IMG/VR virus record: IMGVR_UViG_2802429219_000017
Coordinates: 1-20,241 of that record
DNA: 20,241 nucleotides
Origin: a virus
Lineage: Duplodnaviria; Heunggongvirae; Uroviricota; Caudoviricetes
Strand: one strand, 5' to 3'
The translations under genes were made by a program, and so were the position numbers. Of the stretch, positions 735 to 10,111 are shown in pieces. The notes below the pieces were generated by a model. The model was not told the DNA's origin, ran no database searches, and saw nothing but the letters and a program-made list of their open reading frames with translations. Numbering within the stretch: position 1 is the first letter of the stretch; each line of letters opens with the position of its first letter.

Positions 735-1811
735 TCAGAGCAGTAAGTACGTTTTTTCTCTCTCATCAAGATACATTTTTGTTGTCTTCTCCGATGTGTG
801 GCCAAGTAGACGCTGAGCAAATTCTTCTCCACATGTTTCTTTGTATAATCGTCCAGCCAGGCTTCTGATCTCGTGAAAAGTTGGTGGGTTTTCACTGAAC
901 TGGATACCTGTTAATTTTCTGGCTGCAACAAATTTTTTTGTCAGGCCGTCCGGGTGAATGCTTCCGTCAGGGCTGTTTTTTCTAATCCCGGCACTGATTA
1001 GAAAATCTCCCCGGCTTACCAGGCGGCACCGTTCAACTACTGTACCAAGACGTAGACCAGCGACAGGAAGGCTGAGTGACAGGGGGATAGCAATCATCAT
1101 TCCTGTCTTAATTTGCCTGATGTGGAGACGATCATCATAAATATCACTGAACCGCATATTCGTTATGTCTTCGCGACGTTGTCCTGTTACAAGGGCTAAG
1201 TCCATAGCTAATGGGAACCATGTCGGAAGTTGATCTGCTGCCTCCCTGATGCAGTTGTATGTCTTTAGTTTCAGCCGTTCTCTTGTAACTACTATTTTCG
1301 GTGCTCTTGTTGGCGTTACTGGATTTTGAGATATACGCCCTTCAACAATGGCTTCGCGGAACATATCAGATAACACAGAACGCATTGATCCTGCCATCGT
1401 GTTTTTCCCTCCTTCAATCCACAAATCAAGAAACTCGGCAATATGGCGAGTGGTTATTTCTGTCAGTAAAATCCCTCCTAATTTTTCTTTTATTGTTTCC
1501 AGTTGATTTCCCCGAATTTTATAAGTATTTCTGGACACTTTTCTCCTTATAAGAATCGTTTTGTAACGTTCAATCCAGTCTGCCATAGTAAATGAGTCGA
1601 ACCCTTTAAGTTTTTCAATTAAGGCAGCAGGAGAGTAGTTTTTGTATATATAATGATTTGCTTCAATTGCCTGCGCGATTGCATCTCTTCTTGAAATTTT
1701 ACCTAGTGTAAATTCTTCTTTCGTCAGAGGGTTGCGCCAGTAATATGCTTTGTCCCTCCTTCGATATGTTAAGTTCCTAGGCAAATTGGGATCGTATTTT
1801 TTCCGCTGCAT
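735..1811 (-). CDS. int: Phage tyrosine integrase, lambda Int family (358 aa)
   Basis: Translation aligns by eye with lambda Int along its length (N-terminal arm-binding region NLPRNLTYRRR, C-terminal ...PTFHEIRSLAGRLY...LLGH... catalytic region). Confidence 0.9.
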   Translation of the reverse strand: MQRKKYDPNLPRNLTYRRRDKAYYWRNPLTKEEFTLGKISRRDAIAQAIEANHYIYKNYSPAALIEKLKGFDSFTMADWIERYKTILIRRKVSRNTYKIRGNQLETIKEKLGGILLTEITTRHIAEFLDLWIEGGKNTMAGSMRSVLSDMFREAIVEGRISQNPVTPTRAPKIVVTRERLKLKTYNCIREAADQLPTWFPLAMDLALVTGQRREDITNMRFSDIYDDRLHIRQIKTGMMIAIPLSLSLPVAGLRLGTVVERCRLVSRGDFLISAGIRKNSPDGSIHPDGLTKKFVAARKLTGIQFSENPPTFHEIRSLAGRLYKETCGEEFAQRLLGHTSEKTTKMYLDEREKTYLLL

Positions 1812-2603: not shown

Positions 2604-3692
2604 TCAGGAGCCGATATATTCTGGTTTCATATCTGTCAGTGTCGTTTTATACGCCTCATATAATTCACCCAGATGTGGCCGGGCAGCATTCAGCGTATTT
2701 TCCAGAGCAGTAAATTTTTGTTCTGCATCTGGATCACCGGATGAAGGAAGGTCATTTATCATCTTCTCGATACTGGCAATAGCATTGAGACGGTGATGAC
2801 GCCGAACCACTTTTCCTTTAAGCTCGGCAAAGAATTCGCCGATCTGGTTTTTCTGATCCTCTATCTCTTGGCGTAATGCAGTGGTTTCCTCAGTCGTGGC
2901 CGCGCTTTCGACACGCTGCCGGAATTCATCAATCCACGCTTCGTCAATACGCTGTTCGATGGTTTCTGTTCGCTGCTCGCTTACCTCGCTATAATTCTGT
3001 ACCGGCACAGGATTGATGATTTTTTCCTGTGGCTCTTCCAGTTCGTCCGGGGTATACACGCCCAGGATGACGTCAGGACAATAAAGGCGAGCCCAGTATT
3101 TCAACGCCAGATAGGCGAGCTGTTGTTTCGGGTTTGAGGTCCATAAAGGAGAATTACGCGTAATCACGCTGGAAAGAAACACCGGTTCTCCCCAGGTAAT
3201 CTCACTTTCACCGCGAAGAACTGCACCAACTCGAACTGAGAGACCATACTCATCTTCACTGGTCCAACATGGGATCGTTTCTTTTTTCTCATAGATTCCG
3301 CCTCCTTTGGCCGTTTTCTTAACGGTCTCCACTCGGGTGCGAGAGCATTTCTCCCAGTCTCCCTCGTACTTGTAATGGAAGCGGCCTACAATTGCACTTG
3401 AGCTAGAGATCACAGCGTTAACCAGTTGTGCTTCATAACCCAGAACTCCGTTTACCAGGTGTGTTTTCTGAGCCACAGCGTAGGGGTTCATGCCCCATTG
3501 CATGGCTTGCATGATGATTGCCATGCAGTCGGCAGGCTTTCCGCGAAGGTGATCGGGAACTGTGACGGTGGCCTGTGACATCAACCCGGCTACTTCCTGA
3601 AGTTGCGTCAACGCCTGAACGTTAAAAATAGTGTTACTGGCAGAAATGGTATTTGGTGTCTGCTCTGTCGTGATGATATTGGTATTTTGCAT
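2604..3692 (-). CDS. Single-strand annealing recombinase in the RecT position (divergent from K-12 RecT)
   Basis: Sits immediately downstream of recE with overlapping stop/start. GGAGAA SD favours the ATG at 3692 (MQNTNIIT...); the ORF is open to 3707. The RecT-family call rests on position and general resemblance only. Confidence 0.65.
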   Translation of the reverse strand: MQNTNIITTEQTPNTISASNTIFNVQALTQLQEVAGLMSQATVTVPDHLRGKPADCMAIIMQAMQWGMNPYAVAQKTHLVNGVLGYEAQLVNAVISSSSAIVGRFHYKYEGDWEKCSRTRVETVKKTAKGGGIYEKKETIPCWTSEDEYGLSVRVGAVLRGESEITWGEPVFLSSVITRNSPLWTSNPKQQLAYLALKYWARLYCPDVILGVYTPDELEEPQEKIINPVPVQNYSEVSEQRTETIEQRIDEAWIDEFRQRVESAATTEETTALRQEIEDQKNQIGEFFAELKGKVVRRHHRLNAIASIEKMINDLPSSGDPDAEQKFTALENTLNAARPHLGELYEAYKTTLTDMKPEYIGS

Positions 3693-3706
3693 GGTCAGGT
3701 TCTCCA

Positions 3707-6700
3707 TTAAGCCAGATGCAGTGCTTCAAGACGACGAAGATCAAAGTCGTTTAATTCGTCGGTATAACTTTCGGTTATCGGTGCTGGCCAATTGTTTGTC
3801 TCCAGGGCTTCGTTTATCTGGCGTAGCGTCCGGCGATATTCCTGTCGACCAAGTTCCAGGAGTTCCTGCGAGGCTTCCACGACAGCCACCCAGTGATAGC
3901 CAGCATCTTTGTTGACGAAGATCCAGAAAAATTTGTCCAGGTTTGCCACATCGCAATACATTGCGGCGCTGAGGTGATAATCACGCTCAATAATTTCACG
4001 GTGCAGGCGATCTTTAAGTCGTTCCTGCCGCACATAACCGAGGCTGACTGACTTCACGTCAGCGCAAATGCTTTCGTATGGCAGCCGGATTTCGATATCA
4101 GGACGGACCCTGATTTCCAGCCCGGTTTCTTCATCAAACCCGAAATAGCTGATTTCAGATTTGCGATCCGGGTGGTTGAGTAGCCTTGCTGCATCGGTAT
4201 TGTTTTGCAGTGCCGCGTGAATATTTTTTGCCTGTTCATACATATCCGGACTGATAAACGTTTTCCCGGCGTTTTCTTCTTGCTGGCGTTTTTGCCAGTC
4301 CTCCAGTGTCACCAGTTCCGGGCGAATTTTCCGTGCGATTTCGGTTAATTGCTCTTTTGTGCCACTGATGTTGTAAGGCAAAGATTTAGCACGTTCTTTT
4401 TTTGCCAGTTCTGGGTCTACAGTTTCAATTTGATCCAGAAGCTGCTCCCGTGCTCCACTGGTTTTCAACAGAGGAGGGAGGCTTGCGTTGTATTCTTTAA
4501 TACAGGCTTTCATTGCTGATGCTGTATGTTTTTCCCCCTCAGGAATACGCCGAAATTCCACCGGAAGCGAACCGTAAAGGATGCCTGTTTCTTCGGCCCC
4601 AGCACTTACAGACAGTGGCTGTATAAGAGTGCTGTTGTAGCTTTCGATCCACTCTTTCATCTGCTCTGGTGTCATCAGTGCTGGCAGACTGGCATTGTGT
4701 TTTTTAATGATGGCGATCAGTTCGTTAGAAGTAGTAACCACATATTCAGGAACCGGTACCGGAATGGCATATTCATCAGCGAATTTATCCGTTTCCAGAA
4801 CATAGCTGTGAATGATCCGCCCACGCAGCAGTGCATCACTTTCCTCGTTCGGAATAGTTCCGGCAATGTGCCGCCCGTGGTAATACATCAGGCTGATACG
4901 GGCATCCTTCAGCATCGTGCTGCTTATTCCGTTGGCGGAGTGATAAACCTCGTTCGGGAGGTTTTCATAGCGGCCTGGCTCGAAATATGACGGCCACATG
5001 ATTTCAGTTGCTACAGGAGCTGACGCTTCACCAGTTTCATCACTGCAATCACGATGCGGATCGCTGCCAGCATTCTCATTGTGCGGATGTTCAGCGCCTT
5101 CCATTTCCACCGGATCTTTTTCCTTAGCTTCAACCTGATTCTCTTCATCGAATGTTTCCTGGTATGTTGCGTCGCCCATTACCGCACCACAGTCAGGGCA
5201 GTTATCCCCGTCAGTCTGACCGCAGGCGGCGCAGACTTTTTCCGGTTCCTGTTGCGCTTCTGGTTCATTTTGTCGCGCATTTTGGCCGTTTTGTTCCGAT
5301 TTTCGGTCGTTCTGTTCCGTTTTTGGCTGATGCTGGTACACAGAATCGCGGGTCTGGATCCCCTTAACCCATTTCGGATCATTCGGGTCGCTAATCCCTT
5401 CAACAAATTCTCCGCGATAGGCAGCCAGTAATTTGTCTGCATCGACAGGATTTTTGGGCGGAATGTTTTTCCGGGCTTCATGGAGTTCTGCCCGCAGTTC
5501 TTGATATTTCGCATCAACAGAATTTACCTGTGACTGAGCATCCAGCGGCTGCGTGTCCTGATGATGTTCAGTTGCGTCCGGTTCCATTGTTTCAGCCTCT
5601 CCCTGTTCATCTGCCGTTGTTCCAGATGGTTGCGGTTTTTCTTCATCATCCTGTTTTCCTTCTTCTGTTACACGCTGCGGCATCGGGGCAGAGGAACGAC
5701 CGCAGGCAATATCCACGATTTCCGGATCAGGGTTGGCATGATCAGTTTCAGTCAGTACTTTGTTCAGATATTCAGTGACGTGCGCGGGGGTGACCTCGAT
5801 CCCAATTGGTGCTTCTTTCACGGACGCAACCACGATGGCGCGGGAATAATCCAGCCCGCCAGGCATGGTGATGAATTTGTCGCGGAAAACAGAAAAGGGC
5901 GGTTTATTTTCAGCGATAATTTCCTCAATGCGTTTAGCGTGTGCCGGATGAAGGTTATAAATGTCCACGTCCATTGAACGGGCCAGTACGCCAGTGGCTA
6001 CGTCGCGCGCCAGCGACGTCAGATCGTGGACGAAACCTTCGCCGCGATCGGTGAGGTTCCCGCCGCCAGCATTAGCACCGGAAGCCATGCGCGTGATGCG
6101 TGAAACACGATTCCCTTTTCGCCATTCTTTTGTCAGAAGACCGCGATCAATGTGTTCGGTATCCAGCCAGGCTGAAATGAAATTCTTAAATTCATAGGGC
6201 TGATGTTTTTTCGTGATAGAGAAAACCCCCTTAATTGCATCAGTCAGGCGGAGCAGGGCGGCATTATCCAGAGTTGTCGGTTCTGCCATGCCGCGTATGG
6301 CCAACAGCAGATTCTGGACATAGCTGTTTTCCTGATCCATCTCAAGAGCAGTAATGTGTTCGCGTTGTTCTCGGGTGGCATGATGCAGGTATTTCCGATC
6401 CCCGGCCGCATAGGTAAAAATGTGCAGAAGACGCTGTGTGAACCGCAAAGTGGCTACAGAGACTTCGCAATCCTGGCAATCCTCGTGGGCGTCTGCCTGC
6501 GTGTTTTCTTCCTGGCCTCCCGCCAGTTCTTTGGTTTCTTGAGCATTATCCTGGTGGTGAACGTCGTCTGGCGCTGCTCCCGGTTTTAGTTCCCAGGTCA
6601 TGGAGTCTTTGCTGAGTTGATAGCGTTCACTCCAGGTAAAATCGATCTCACCTTCAGGGGGCAGGTCATTAACGACAGGAAAATTCGTGGCAACAGCTTT

Positions 6701-6853
6701 AAAATAGCTGCTCAGTTTTTTACCTGACTTAACGATCAGGTAGTCCAGAGTGGCACAGGTCGATTCAAAATCGTCGCTTGCCCACAGGACGACGTCAGGT
6801 TCACCGGATGATTTTTTCGCTTTCCGTAACAGGAAGAGTGGTTTTGTGCTCAT
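3707..6853 (-). CDS. recE: Exodeoxyribonuclease VIII (RecE-like), 1048 aa, with a divergent C-terminal PD-(D/E)XK nuclease domain
   Basis: N-terminal ~590 aa closely match my memory of Rac RecE, including the CxxC...CPDC zinc motif. The C-terminal region has a RecE/YqaJ-like YH..GIS motif and a PD...(D/E)xK core (RPDIEI...ADVKS) but carries a large insertion with three related repeats. Confidence 0.85.
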
Positions 6854-6923: not shown

Positions 6924-6952
6924 GCCTGCACGTTGTGCAGGCTTTCTTTTTT
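6924..6952 (+). terminator. Plus-strand rho-independent terminator between recE and racC, antisense to the leftward operon
   Basis: GCCTGCAC-GTT-GTGCAGGC stem-loop (6924-6942) followed by TTTCTTTTTT (6943-6952). On the minus strand the run is A-rich, so it does not terminate the operon. Confidence 0.5.
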
Positions 6953-7227
6953 CAGATTTCACCTTTTAATTTAATTGCAATCAGAGTTGCCAGAAATCCG
7001 GCTTTTTTTTCTACGGGCAGATTCTTTCCGATGTGAACCAGACTCATTTTTGTGACACCTTCATCAAGTGTTTTTACGTTGCCTGATGGGCCGTCAATAT
7101 CAACCACAGTGAATGGGGTTTCTTTATTTTCTGTTTTAATCACGTAGCCAATACGCTTTCCTTCCAGATTAACCTCGTGAACAATGTCATCGGTAGTTAC
7201 AACAGTGACTTCATAATTGGTAATCAT
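6952..7227 (-). CDS. racC: RacC (91 aa)
   Basis: MITNYEVTVVTTDDIVHEVNLEGKRIGYVIKTENKETPFTVVDIDGPSGNVKTL... is near-identical to my memory of Rac RacC. Confidence 0.85.
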   Translation of the reverse strand: MITNYEVTVVTTDDIVHEVNLEGKRIGYVIKTENKETPFTVVDIDGPSGNVKTLDEGVTKMSLVHIGKNLPVEKKAGFLATLIAIKLKGEI

Positions 7228-7300: not shown

Positions 7301-7471
7301 TTAAAGTTCGTGTGCCATCTGGTCTTTTTCGGCACATATTTCACTACAATATTTTTTCATTTCCGTCGTTGGGATAACTCCACGCATGAAATGAAGTGGT
7401 TTTGTAATGCTTTTGCTTTTTTCAACTTCTTTATTGCAAAGGTGGTAAGCACATTTTATTTTCTTAGTCAT
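7301..7471 (-). CDS. ydaE: YdaE-like small zinc-binding protein (56 aa)
   Basis: Hand-translated from the minus strand (below the ORF-track size cutoff): [56 protein letters not shown]. Start overlaps the kilR stop (ATGGTGATGA). Cys pairs at both ends. Position matches Rac ydaE. Confidence 0.6.
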   Translation of the reverse strand: MTKKIKCAYHLCNKEVEKSKSITKPLHFMRGVIPTTEMKKYCSEICAEKDQMAHEL

Positions 7472-7692
7472 CACCATGACTCCGCCTTTACAGGTAAACC
7501 ATCACGACCGAGGAAGACTTTAATCATGCAGTCAGTAATGCATGTTTTTGTGGTCAGGTTACGAATATAAAGTTTTCGCTTTTTGATATTGTTTGCCGAG
7601 GCGATATATGTCCGACCTTCATGAAGAACATAATCGCCAGGGGTCACACACTGACGTGGTATTTCATCAGTTCCGAAGTGATGAGCAATCAT
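7471..7692 (-). CDS. kilR: KilR cell-division inhibitor (73 aa)
   Basis: [49 protein letters not shown]... matches my memory of Rac KilR. GGAG SD lies 6 nt before the ATG at 7692. Confidence 0.85.
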
Positions 7693-7858
7693 AATTATCT
7701 CCATTTTTACAAATGAATTTTGTCGATGCGGTGCCTGGTGCCTCCAGGTGACGTTAACCAGTTAACAATTAACGCCGGAGTATTTCACCCATAACTCTTA
7801 CGCTTTTAACTGTTCCGCGTGCGCTGAGCCGCATTCACCGCATCACAAAATTCACTTT

Positions 7859-7916
7859 AAAAAGGACGGACATCAGCCAGCAATGAAACTGATGCCGCCA
7901 AAAGGTAATCAACATG
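7859..7916 (-). ncRNA. Candidate DicF-like sRNA 3' module: minus-strand hairpin plus U-run upstream of kilR
   Basis: Minus strand reads ...UUUUGGCGGCAUCAGUUUCAUUGCUGGCUGAUGUCCGUCCUUUUU: an ~11-bp stem with two bulges followed by U5. It occupies the dicF position (immediately before the division inhibitor, in a dicA/dicC-controlled operon). Resemblance to DicF is from imperfect memory. Confidence 0.35.
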
Positions 7917-8149
7917 GGTTGTTGCAGCGGGGTTGTCACTCAAGCGTATGGTCAACCTGACAACCCGGTGCTCCACAGGGGGAGGGAGAATAGCACCCCT
8001 GCCATACTTACCGCCGCGCCATTTCGCGGATTGCCACAACCGGAAGCGCACGGTCGAAGAAATTTAACGACAAGCCTTCTAAGGGAAAAACATCACCTCC
8101 GTGCGCTTTCGTGTTGTGCGCCTGTCTTTTTTTACCACTTCAGGCTCGG

Positions 8150-8158
8150 TGGTATACT
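8150..8158 (+). promoter_or_regulatory. Extended -10 promoter element (TGgTATACT) for the downstream zinc-ribbon gene
   Basis: TG-n-TATACT at 8150-8158, about 33 nt upstream of the ATG at 8191, preceded by a T-run at 8124-8131. The -35 is weak. Confidence 0.4.
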
Positions 8159-8190
8159 GGAGTTCTCACACAACCAGTAAGGAATTTAGT

Positions 8191-8469
8191 ATGGTAATTA
8201 CTTCACTCTGCCCTGTTTGTTTGGCTACATCTTCTGTGCAGACTTTAGTTGAAGGGCAGCGCGAGTTTTTGAAAATTTATCATTGTCCAAATCATGGTAG
8301 TTTTGCCGTTCTTCCTGACCTTGATGTGAAATTGCAAGCAATGAGGTGTTCATCGGGTTATAAGATTGAACATTCGGAAGAGGCTATCAGGCTCGATGCA
8401 CGCTTACGTGAAAGCATACGCCCAGTAGATGGTCCTCAGTCGAAAATTCCAGTATTCCGCTCTGTCTAG
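8191..8469 (+). CDS. Small zinc-ribbon protein (92 aa), function unknown, in the sieB slot
   Basis: ORF MVITSLCPVCLATSSVQ...HCPNHGSF... with AAGGAA SD 6 nt upstream. CPxC...CPNH motif. Convergent to the leftward operon, the orientation of sieB in Rac. Confidence 0.6.
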   Translation: MVITSLCPVCLATSSVQTLVEGQREFLKIYHCPNHGSFAVLPDLDVKLQAMRCSSGYKIEHSEEAIRLDARLRESIRPVDGPQSKIPVFRSV

Positions 8470-8500
8470 TTTTCCCCTGACTGGCACCTTGTGGTGCCGG

Positions 8501-8800
8501 TCACATCTCCTCGATCATCGCATTTACTACGATTCGCAGATCTTCCAGTGCACTTTCAACTTTTAGATCATTTGCAGCTTCACTGACTTTTTTCATGGCA
8601 TCAGCCATTCTTTTAATCAGATCATTTGGAGTCTCTTTTGTGTTAGCAGAAACCCTGCTGGCCAGTTCCAGTGCGAGACGTGCATCTTTCGGTGTAATGC
8701 CTTTATCTTTTGCCATCTCTGCTGCCAGCTCAGAAAGCTCGGATGCAAGAGTGAGTACGCTTCTTCCCGTTTTTGACGGATATATATCGTGCGTGAACAT
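8501..8800 (-). CDS. First gene of the leftward early operon: 99-aa helical protein (YdfA/YdaF-YdaG-like position)
   Basis: ORF with AAGGAA SD, directly downstream of a sigma-70 promoter and operator-like palindromes. Acidic, helical composition. Homology to Qin YdfA/YdfB or Rac YdaF/YdaG is inferred from position only. Confidence 0.6.
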   Translation of the reverse strand: MFTHDIYPSKTGRSVLTLASELSELAAEMAKDKGITPKDARLALELASRVSANTKETPNDLIKRMADAMKKVSEAANDLKVESALEDLRIVVNAMIEEM

Positions 8801-8875: not shown

Positions 8876-8904
8876 AATTTAGTTTTCTCATGAAAATTGG
8901 TCAA
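8876..8904 (-). promoter_or_regulatory. pL-like leftward early promoter (-35 TTGACC, 17-nt spacer, -10 TAAATT)
   Basis: On the minus strand: TTGACC (8899-8904), 17-nt spacer, TAAATT (8876-8881). An operator-like palindrome lies 10 bp upstream of the -35. Confidence 0.55.
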
Positions 8905-8913
8905 GCGTTTTTG

Positions 8914-8927
8914 GTGAGAAAACTCAA
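8914..8927. promoter_or_regulatory. Operator-like site OL (GTGAGAAAACTCAA), near-identical to the palindrome at OR
   Basis: 13/14 match to TTGAGAAAACTCAA at 9448-9461; the two copies flank the repressor gene. Confidence 0.55.
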
Positions 8928-8989
8928 TATTTAATGCAAAATAAAGCCAATACATTGAAATGTAAGGCTTTAAAATTTGTGAAGGGGGG

Positions 8990-9397
8990 TTATTGATGTT
9001 TGTTACGTTTGCGAGCTTCTAGTAGCTCGGTGAATAGGCGATTAAAATTCTCAACGCGGGCACGGAGTTCGCTGATTTGTGCTTGCTGCTCTGATTTTGG
9101 AAGTGCGCGATACAATCGCAACATCTCCAACTCATCTTCCGATAAGTCTAAGGCGCTGTTGAGTGCAACTGGTGGATCTGGTGTTTTATCCTCGTCACCA
9201 AACAGTATCCAAGTTGGTGAACATTGCAATACCTCAGCCAGGCGATGCAAATTTTGCCCGCGCGGGGCTGTATGGTCGCTTTCCCATAGTGAAATTGATG
9301 AGCCAGATACGCCAGCAGCTTTGCTTAAATCGTTTTGACTTAAACCAACCTGTTTGCGTCTTTCTCTAATTCGTTGACCTAAAGTTTTCTCGTTCAT
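8990..9397 (-). CDS. dicA: Prophage repressor, DicA-type XRE-family HTH protein (135 aa, no peptidase domain)
   Basis: HTH region LGQRIRERRKQVGLSQNDLSKAAGVS... and the ...LQCSPTWILFGDEDK... segment match my memory of Qin DicA, which is also 135 aa. Confidence 0.8.
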   Translation of the reverse strand: MNEKTLGQRIRERRKQVGLSQNDLSKAAGVSGSSISLWESDHTAPRGQNLHRLAEVLQCSPTWILFGDEDKTPDPPVALNSALDLSEDELEMLRLYRALPKSEQQAQISELRARVENFNRLFTELLEARKRNKHQ

Positions 9398-9418: not shown

Positions 9419-9448
9419 TTGACTTGAGATTCCTTGAGTGATTACTAT
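9419..9448 (+). promoter_or_regulatory. PR-like rightward early promoter (-35 TTGACT, -10 TACTAT) with TTGAG repeats
   Basis: TTGACT at 9419-9424, 17-18 nt spacer, TTACTA/TACTAT at 9442-9448. Direct TTGAG repeats sit in the spacer. Confidence 0.5.
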
Positions 9449-9461
9449 TGAGAAAACTCAA
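9448..9461. promoter_or_regulatory. Operator OR: perfect 14-bp palindrome TTGAGAAAACTCAA at the PR start site
   Basis: Perfect inverted repeat immediately downstream of the PR -10, just upstream of the cro-like SD. Confidence 0.6.
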
Positions 9462-9474
9462 CTTTGGAGGGGTG

Positions 9475-9702
9475 ATGTTTAAATCAGACGTAATTAATTT
9501 TTATGGGACGAAAGCCAAAGTAGCGAAAGCTGCTGGTGTTGATCCATCCGCTGTTTCTCAATGGGGGGAACTGGTTCCTGAAGGTCGCGCGATGCGCCTG
9601 CAAGAGGCATCCGGCGGGGAACTTCAGTATGACCCCAAAGTTTATGACGAATATCGTAAGGCAAAGCGGGCGGGGAAGGTGATTCATGAAAATCAGGCAT
9701 GA
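9475..9702 (+). CDS. dicC: Cro-like regulator, DicC-type (75 aa)
   Basis: MFKSDVINFYGTKAKVAKAAGVDPSAVSQWGELVPEGRAMRLQEASGGELQYDPKVYDEYRK... resembles DicC. GGAGGGG SD precedes the ATG at 9475; the track ORF begins with TTG at 9448. Confidence 0.7.
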   Translation: MFKSDVINFYGTKAKVAKAAGVDPSAVSQWGELVPEGRAMRLQEASGGELQYDPKVYDEYRKAKRAGKVIHENQA

Positions 9703-10111
9703 GCACATCGAATCAGTGCTGTTAGCCCTGGCAGCCGAAAAAGGGCAGGCGTGGGTCGCTAACGCAATTACTGAAGAATATCTGCGCCAGGGGGGGGGCG
9801 GCGAATTACCCCTGGTACCAGGCAAGGACTGGAACAATCAGCAGAATATCTATCACCGCTGGTTGAAAGGTGAAACGGAAGCGCAAAGGGAAAAAATTCA
9901 GAAACTGATCCCTGCAATTCTGGCAATCCTTCCGCGCGAGCTGCGCCACCGATTCAGCATCTTCGATACCCTGGAACGCCGTGCATTACTGGCGGCGCAG
10001 GAAGCGTTGAGTACGGCAATTGATGCGCATGATGATGCAGTCCAAGCCGTTTACCGGAAAGCGCATTTCAGCGGTGGTGGGTCGTCCGACGATTCTGCTG
10101 TTGTTCATTAA
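9686..10111 (+). CDS. ydaT: YdaT (CII-like fold), 141 aa
   Basis: MKIRHEHIESVLLALAAEKGQAWVANAITEEYLRQGGGG... is near-identical to my memory of Rac YdaT. AAGGTGA SD; overlaps the cro-like stop. Confidence 0.85.
   Translation: MKIRHEHIESVLLALAAEKGQAWVANAITEEYLRQGGGGELPLVPGKDWNNQQNIYHRWLKGETEAQREKIQKLIPAILAILPRELRHRFSIFDTLERRALLAAQEALSTAIDAHDDAVQAVYRKAHFSGGGSSDDSAVVH

Follow-up and report, generated by a model that had tools for sequence, protein, structure and literature searches.

The superinfection-exclusion protein SieB is a lysogen-expressed exclusion protein, and morons, known from the comparative genomics of HK97 and HK022, are autonomous promoter-gene-terminator insertions of lambdoid phages which the prophage expresses. 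Here we describe a gene, ORF92, that resembles both in some respects and neither in full; it lies in a 20,241-nucleotide (nt) stretch of viral DNA (Caudoviricetes; positions 1–20,241 of IMG/VR record IMGVR_UViG_2802429219_000017; hereafter the window) that forms the left-hand portion of a Rac-like prophage inserted beside yebY. SieB and the moron concept are already known; judged from its sequence, ORF92 is not a SieB homolog, and it occupies the SieB slot behind a homologous control element. The features central to this comparison are as follows.

8118–8158, plus strand: conserved core element with promoter-like site (promoter scan; shared with sieB upstream regions)
8159–8190, plus strand: conserved leader GGAGTTCTCACACAACCAGTAAGG with the Shine-Dalgarno sequence AAGGA (pattern matches and alignment)
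8191–8469, plus strand: ORF92, ATG at 8191 and TAG at 8467–8469, 92 residues (open reading frame (ORF) call and translation)

Like the sieB genes of lambda, P22, and Rac, ORF92 is a lone plus-strand gene inside a leftward early operon near the repressor (lambda sieB having the same solitary orientation within its leftward operon), and the core of its control element is shared with theirs. The proteins themselves are different: ORF92 has no sequence similarity to SieB and no SieB match in the Pfam and NCBIfam searches, and the SieB proteins are hydrophobic and 162–192 residues long, whereas ORF92 has 92 residues and a predicted compact ribbon-plus-helix structure. The geometry differs as well, as the -10 hexamer of ORF92 abuts the core and leaves a leader of ~26 nt, whereas the annotated P22 promoter lies downstream of the core; an internal second product like Esc is also not evident in ORF92. 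As with morons, ORF92 has its own promoter-like site, opposes its neighbors, and sits in only some similar prophages; unlike morons, its expression platform is conserved and reused with exchangeable cargo instead of being private to each gene, the hairpin downstream of it lacks a U-run, and its guanine-plus-cytosine (GC) content is like that of its flanks. The acr-aca loci offer a further parallel in that mobile elements there exchange many unrelated small proteins at one fixed locus with a conserved promoter, whereas the sieB slot has no adjacent Aca-type helix-turn-helix (HTH) regulator, holds a single cargo gene with neighbors that shuffle independently, and has cargos that are not known to act against host defenses. 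Lastly, P22 sieB is under the control of the antisense RNA sas, according to PMC12197685; the geometry described there, with leftward early transcripts running antisense across the 5' end of the slot gene, is the same as that predicted at ORF92, whereas the ORF92 element had no matching Rfam family and a sieB/esc-like internal translational switch is not evident.

ORF92 is a conserved gene

The first-pass annotation of the window, made from the DNA alone, had described a 92-residue protein with CPxC and CPNH motifs, and this was borne out: the product of ORF92 (8191–8469, plus strand; MVITSLCPVCLATSSVQTLVEGQREFLKIYHCPNHGSFAVLPDLDVKLQAMRCSSGYKIEHSEEAIRLDARLRESIRPVDGPQSKIPVFRSV) carries CPVC at residues 7–10 and CPNH at residues 32–35. 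The start given there, position 8132, takes in the promoter, and ORF92 itself starts at 8191, 7 nt downstream of the AAGGA at 8179–8183. The GC content of the gene (0.437) does not set it apart from the flanking genes. Some gene callers choose a longer reading from a GTG at 8101 (122 residues, as in P0001), and extensions to upstream GTG starts, of 122 and 117 residues, were seen among P0001, P0004, and P0005. All homologs, by contrast, start at a position corresponding to M1, and the block conserved ahead of the gene stops at the ribosome-binding site; because homolog starts, ribosome-binding site, and the boundary of the conserved element agree, the ATG at 8191 is preferred and a start at 8101 is unlikely.

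Comparison of ORF92 with the copy in E. coli U90 identified six synonymous and no non-synonymous differences (dS 0.10), and the ratio of non-synonymous to synonymous substitution rates (dN/dS) was 0.21 when ORF92 was compared with the copy of Cronobacter sakazakii (89% identity) and 0.19 with that of Salmonella enterica (70% identity). On these comparative grounds ORF92 is a real gene, and its protein is under purifying selection. It is nonetheless uncommon. Only seven of 5426 complete E. coli genomes have ORF92, and a word-indexed search of 5.8 billion protein clusters (90% identity), iterated with diverged members, returned 27 clusters (5, then 8, then 27 over successive rounds), while an exhaustive profile search of 1.84 billion representatives identified three family members; no relative in either collection bears a functional name. 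A tblastn search of 50,697 phage records gave no match, and one of a plasmid collection gave a single match, CP100067.1, which was deposited as the 47.7-kb E. coli plasmid p727A3-47K and carries an identical copy of ORF92. As CP100067.1 is a complete circular genome of a Rac-like phage, with int, xis, recET, replication, lysis, head, and tail genes, this suggests that a phage with an identical ORF92 excises and is active. A literature search with the accessions of the protein found no paper on it.

The rarity of the family would suit a decaying or functionless passenger ORF, as would one assembled homolog, P0004, with an in-frame deletion of approximately residues 13–41, the second half of the ribbon. 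However, a dN/dS of ~0.2, the lack of any non-synonymous difference between the E. coli copies at a dS of 0.10, the retention of the putative ligands and tail motif (below) down to ~25% identity, and a confident, compact structure prediction all speak against decay, and we regard a passenger role as scarcely credible.

The control element is shared with sieB

In K-12 Rac, sieB occupies the position aligned to ORF92, and the sequence upstream of ORF92 is homologous to that upstream of sieB in K-12 Rac, lambda, and P22; the earlier proposal that the gene fills the sieB slot thus stands. When representatives were aligned the element proved to be ~70 nt long and sharply bounded, its conservation extending from TGCCTGTC to just past the ribosome-binding site, and at some loci the upstream flanks are wholly different. 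The core, TGCCTGTC-TTTT-AACCAC-nTCAGGCTCG-GTGGT, was found upstream of sieB in lambda (about 1395–1435 of record L072), P22 (29660–29685 of record L073), and K-12 Rac, and also in SfII and SfV. A block that belongs to this region, CCACTTCAGGCTCGGTGGTATACTGGAGTTCTCACACAACCAGTAAGG, is near-identical before ORF92 relatives with only ~30% protein identity, and a 35-nt pattern spanning the leader (with two Y positions) had exact matches in 53 IMG/VR contigs, where the ORFs that follow it fall into at least ten unrelated families of 55–104 residues; a first scan of genome contigs gave no match to the exact pattern.

The promoter-like site (8131–8158) consists of TTTACC (8131–8136), a 16-nt spacer, and TATACT (8153–8158), with a TG at 8150–8151, and matches the consensus at nine of 12 positions plus the TG. 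Promoter-like sites were no more numerous in the ORF92 region than in shuffled sequence, so that a consensus match proves nothing by itself and the case for an ORF92 promoter rests on conservation. On that basis the first-pass claim of an own extended -10 promoter is supported, as the promoter-like site and leader are both present and are conserved far beyond the coding sequence. Transcription would be expected to start near 8164–8166. The leader (8159–8190) is predicted to be unstructured and is single copy, as no second copy or trans-encoded complement of it was found in the window. In 96 of 161 loci the layout is that of the window, with a -10 of the form TAT[ACT][CT]T (such as TATACT, TATCCT, or TATCTT) directly adjoining GGTGG and an ATG 33–42 nt further on; in the layout of lambda and P22 the ATG lies 65–118 nt on instead, and the curated P22 record places the sieB promoter at 29690–29720 and the RNA start at 29727, immediately downstream of the core.

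Two interleaved inverted repeats are found in the core, GCCTG (8120–8124) with CAGGC (8141–8145), and ACCAC (8134–8138) with GTGGT (8149–8153). There are three compensated variants of the first repeat (e.g., GCCTT/AAGGC and GCCCGG/CCGGGC) and several singleton variants that break the pairing, though the covariation sample is biased, the search patterns having fixed the right arm of this repeat. Possible functions of the core are those of an upstream site for a promoter or a binding factor, of a structure formed by the leftward RNA, or of a boundary for recombination. By eye, variants of TTATCCAC resemble a DnaA box.

One part of the first-pass description did not hold. A T-run (8127–8133) had been taken to insulate the gene from upstream transcription; a terminator scan called nothing there, the only nearby hairpin, 5' of the run, is weak, and the run is part of the conserved promoter element, being kept in loci with unrelated upstream flanks. 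We therefore rejected it as a terminator.

Many unrelated small genes lie behind the element

A census that pooled two collection scans, with identical copies and chance matches removed, identified the element at no fewer than 187 distinct loci, with at least 151 called cargos in at least 39 clusters of unrelated, mostly small genes (all of these counts being lower bounds). The median cargo length among the matches listed was 92 residues. SieB forms one of these clusters, with at least 11 members after de-duplication, and ORF92 and SieB fall into separate BLAST clusters (E of 1e-4 or better). Eight or more of the 39 clusters, mutually unrelated, carry CxxC...Cxx[CH] motifs (e.g., at loci L085, L105, and L126), and some of the cargos with CxxC motifs pair a coiled coil with a C-terminal ribbon. 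Among the matches listed, SieB is the only characterized cargo, and neither Pfam nor PADLOC was informative for the non-SieB cargos, to which the only matches were weak ones of coiled-coil or ribbon type. The hosts range across the Enterobacterales, including Xenorhabdus, Photorhabdus, Proteus, Providencia, Morganella, Hafnia, Edwardsiella, Pantoea, Klebsiella, and Citrobacter.

The element is present in 72 E. coli genomes and ORF92 in seven, a presence/absence polymorphism; in strain M19 the 81 nt upstream are 100% identical to window positions 8100–8180 and are followed by a different ORF of 64 residues, and K-12 has sieB at this position. ORF92 is therefore, as expected of a moron, present in only some related prophages.

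These observations raise the possibility, which we consider doubtful at present and offer as a working idea, that the ~70-nt element marks a hitherto unrecognized platform for single-gene cassettes at sieB in temperate phages across the Enterobacterales, into which dozens of unrelated small genes have been swapped, with ORF92 founding a new zinc-ribbon effector class whose mechanism is unlike that of SieB. The promoter and leader of such a platform would be fixed, perhaps under the control of antisense RNA, and its cargos would act between phages or against host defenses. We found no paper on a cassette nature of the sieB slot in our literature search. ORF92 taken alone is a modest finding; what adds interest and testability is the element, through which it is connected to SieB and to about 38 further cargo families. 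If the platform exists as proposed, a large store of effectors, each a single protein, would lie behind it, for use between phages or against host defenses. Should ORF92 and the remaining cargos prove to be expressed in lysogens and to act on other phages, a single short DNA motif would be a practical handle for finding many new single-gene exclusion or defense proteins, and lambdoid phages would be seen to trade such genes by retaining one expression platform and changing the payload; homology tools such as PADLOC and Pfam miss all of these candidate proteins of enterobacterial prophages.

Three side observations concern the census. In SfV (NC_003444) the element is followed at 2578–2823 by an unannotated ORF of 81 residues with its own ribosome-binding site, at a position where the record annotates a minus-strand terminator (2557–2589), and the family of this ORF recurs in at least eight further loci. 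The exact lambda version of the element was also found on very short contigs of unrelated bacteria, such as Pseudoxanthomonas, Nocardioides, Enterococcus, Vibrio, and Paenibacillus (L229, L232, L233, L239, L253, L254, L256, L262, L270, and similar); these are most likely lambda DNA contamination of the assemblies. A variable region of Gifsy-1 reported to control RtcR was considered as the same slot and rejected, being a different, multi-gene region.

ORF92 has a predicted zinc ribbon

An alignment of 25 family members showed C7, P8, C10, C32, and G36 to be invariant, and H35 to be kept in the branch of the family with 88–92 residues; C7, C10, C32, and H35 are the putative metal ligands of a CCCH zinc ribbon. 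The 88–92 residue branch also keeps Y-x-C-x-x-H-G-x-F and a C-terminal P-x-F-[RH]-S (the tail of ORF92 being IPVFRS), while the branch with 95–99 residues keeps CYIYTCEKDGWF and TPLKLIESLE. The ligands and tail motif are conserved down to ~25% identity. An AlphaFold2 model based on the 25 sequences had a predicted local distance difference test (pLDDT) score of 78 and a predicted template-modeling score (pTM) of 0.71, an earlier model from three sequences having been weak (pLDDT 61). It has four strands (residues 3–40), two helices (42–53 and 63–76), and a short C-terminal strand, and both model and alignment place two knuckles, CxxC and CxxH/C, on either side of a beta hairpin, from which metal binding is predicted.

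The nearest described relative of this ribbon is PF23545 (Zn_ribbon_HMPTM), the N-terminal ribbon of some radical S-adenosylmethionine (SAM) enzymes such as GDGT-MAS (7tol/7tom), with which ORF92 shares the arrangement CPxCL...(beta hairpin)...CPxHGxF. The match of ORF92 itself had an E-value of 4.5e-5 (23.4 bits), under the gathering threshold of 27 bits; the relative P0014 has a precomputed PF23545 match, and the family profile matches residues 26–60 of 7tol, the ribbon of GDGT-MAS, with an E-value of 0.0033. Unlike these enzymes ORF92 has no radical SAM domain, and it adds two helices and a conserved tail that they lack. At the motif level only, the resemblance would identify a metal-binding module in ORF92, and it says nothing on function.

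Searches of Pfam, PHROGs, NCBIfam, and PADLOC returned for ORF92 only this sub-threshold PF23545 match and one to the ribbon at the N terminus of TrsS, a radical SAM protein, and no recognizable catalytic domain was found. The first-pass annotation had proposed a structure-based homology search and had named homology to a housekeeping phage protein as a finding that would count against a defense role; a Foldseek search of the model against BFVD returned nothing below an E-value of 0.08 and no informative fold relative, and no housekeeping homolog was found by sequence, profile, or fold search. Recurrent matches to CarD, the Tudor-like domains of UvrD, and Elf1 were too weak to use. If it acts on other phages, ORF92 would have to do so by a new mechanism, as it is a predicted metal-binding protein of 92 residues and none of its relatives has a known function.

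With an isoelectric point of 7.7 the protein is not markedly basic. Its highest Kyte-Doolittle average over 19 residues is 1.57, against 1.73, 2.19, and 3.01 for SieB of lambda, Rac, and P22, respectively; read from the sequence, this peak is the N-terminal stretch around the CPVC knuckle. The stretch is modeled as strands of the ribbon hairpin and its counterparts in homologs include charged residues, and from the model a membrane helix is unlikely.

Leftward transcription and the convergent hairpin

Two further features, one on the opposite strand and one between the convergent stop codons, bear on how ORF92 would be expressed.

8876–8928, minus strand: candidate leftward early promoter (pL), TTGACC-17-TAAATT, running from 8904 down to 8876 (promoter scan)
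8478–8503, either strand: stable hairpin of 11 bp, within the 31 nt that separate the convergent stops of ORF92 and of a gene for a 99-residue protein

Operator-like repeats of the repressor (TTGAGTTTTCTCA), in inverted copies, bracket pL at 8878–8890 and 8915–8927, and a third copy lies at 9449–9461 near the rightward promoter pR. Repeat and pattern searches found no copy of this motif at the ORF92 promoter, and its presence at pL and pR and absence there fits expression of ORF92 in the lysogen. A moron's own promoter, free of phage regulators, is accordingly predicted at ORF92 from the consensus match, the conservation, and the lack of an operator-like motif. A 12-of-14 look-alike of the motif, TAGTTTTCCCCTGA, occurs at 8467–8480, starting at the ORF92 stop codon, and may be due to chance.

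From the position and direction of pL, its transcripts would cross the gene for the 99-residue protein, the hairpin, and ORF92 in antisense, and then kilR. The hairpin (-21.2 kcal/mol; z-score -5.6) has 95.5% of cells paired in an alignment of four sequences, with three pairs showing compensatory changes, seen in the Salmonella and Cronobacter copies, and no U-run follows it on either strand; it is a candidate terminator or RNA stabilizer.

Convergence with pL, the structured hairpin between ORF92 and the 99-residue gene, and an element far more conserved than any cargo would also suit a role of the promoter mainly at the RNA level, in which rightward transcription meets leaky read-through from pL, by collision or by pairing, and so protects the lysogen against kilR expression, coding being secondary; the sas antisense RNA of P22 sieB (PMC12197685) is a precedent at the same locus. 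Against this stand the clear purifying selection on the ORF92 protein and the signs of translation, namely a strong ribosome-binding site, an unstructured leader, and an ATG fixed 33–42 nt after GGTGGT in the class of loci with a TAT-type -10; the cargos are, moreover, consistently intact ORFs. We judge a primarily RNA-level function very unlikely.

A possible role for ORF92

Our preferred explanation, which we advance tentatively as a full chain of steps, is that a Rac-like temperate phage carries ORF92 in its sieB cassette slot as a self-contained accessory gene, or moron. Its promoter would fire without phage regulators, and as it would do so the protein would be made in the lysogen; after induction, convergent transcription from pL would lay antisense RNA over ORF92 and its leader and turn the gene down, the model for this step being sas of P22 sieB as summarized in PMC12197685. 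The protein would bind a target and would not act as a catalyst; it would be directed at a protein of the infecting phage, or at a host factor on which that phage depends, and the outcome would be exclusion or abortive infection of competing phages. The turnover of cargo and the presence of SieB in the same slot are what favor a part in phage–phage or phage–host conflict, and an exclusion or defense role, drawn only from these two observations, is plausible.

Several points weigh against this explanation. The promoter is predicted from a consensus match, and with the mapped sieB promoter of P22 located downstream of the shared core, some other role for that core is possible. With a downstream hairpin that lacks a U-run, ORF92 is not a textbook promoter-gene-terminator unit. 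PADLOC-DB 2.0 contains no defense model that matches ORF92 at E-values up to 0.1. It is position alone that assigns the function, SieB being a different, hydrophobic protein; cargo turnover and the presence of SieB do not tell defense from counter-defense, and a small soluble binder behind a constitutive promoter fits counter-defense or host modulation equally well.

Counter-defense deserves attention, although we think it unlikely. ORF92 would then be an inhibitor of host immunity or an agent of host takeover, made from a constitutive promoter at DNA entry, before the early genes that depend on antitermination, and neutralizing a host immune or restriction component in the manner of Ral, Lar, or the anti-CRISPR proteins, with expression in the lysogen incidental or low. 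Small soluble cargos with no enzymatic domains, in at least 39 unrelated families behind one promoter, do resemble anti-CRISPR loci, and the same region also holds a ralR gene in two close relatives, the prophages of strain U90 and p727A3-47K. Among the top viral fold matches in BFVD are proteins named as restriction alleviation proteins, albeit at a non-significant E-value (0.096; template-modeling score 0.29), and ORF92 had no match to the Lar-type family PF14354 at E-values up to 0.1. Nor does any Aca-like regulator adjoin the cargo, and convergent transcription from pL would oppose expression exactly in early lytic growth, when an inhibitor of this kind would be made. SieB, the sole characterized cargo, is moreover a lysogen-expressed exclusion protein and not an inhibitor of host defense.

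Gene neighborhood

The gene map of the rest of the region places ORF92 as follows.

735–1811, minus strand: integrase
2604–3707, minus strand: RecT-like
3707–6853, minus strand: recE
6952–7227, minus strand: racC-like
7301–7477, minus strand: ydaE
7471–7704, minus strand: kilR
7705–8190: kilR-ORF92 intergenic region (485 nt)
8501–8800, minus strand: 99-residue gene, first of the leftward operon, convergent with ORF92
8990–9397, minus strand: HTH repressor
9448–9702, plus strand: Cro-like
9686–10111, plus strand: ydaT-like

This map agrees with the first-pass description of a gene convergent with the leftward operon, between kilR and the repressor: ORF92 is the sole plus-strand gene of the leftward early region, and the minus-strand gene for the 99-residue protein (8501–8800) also lies between it and the repressor. 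The position is a general one, as all members of the ORF92 family with known context lie between a recE/ydaE/kil module and a repressor, opposite to their neighbors.

The 99-residue neighbor had no family match in Pfam, PHROGs, PADLOC, or NCBIfam. We considered a two-gene convergent module formed with ORF92 (a toxin-antitoxin pair, or a defense gene with self-immunity) and rejected it, as cargo and neighbor shuffle independently: the 99-residue family also adjoins an unrelated cargo of 77 residues, and relatives of ORF92 are accompanied by five other types of neighbor that are unrelated to the 99-residue gene. Because neighbors do not co-vary with the cargo, there is no sign of a partner gene for ORF92.

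Small proteins near immunity regions can control prophage fate, and ORF92 lies ~0.5 kb from the repressor and adjoins kilR, so that it could be argued to regulate its own prophage, through repressor stability, induction, or the toxicity of KilR-like leftward products, with no effect on other phages. Such a function sits poorly with a cargo that is swapped among at least 39 unrelated families while the flanking regulators stay, with relatives of ORF92 that are found beside unrelated genes replacing kilR and with different repressor types, and with the presence of ORF92 in just seven of the 72 E. coli genomes that carry the element, which would not be expected of a core function; we think this role improbable.

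The kilR-ORF92 intergenic region has features of its own. It is homologous (7859–8056 on the minus strand, and also 7685–7914) to the region of K-12 Rac that encodes the small RNA KilS, relative to which it carries an insertion of ~100 nt. Rfam searches gave sub-threshold matches there to DicF (7864–7914; 28.6 bits) and STnc100 (7685–7875; 39.5 bits), and a terminator-like hairpin with a T-run was found at 7896–7869.

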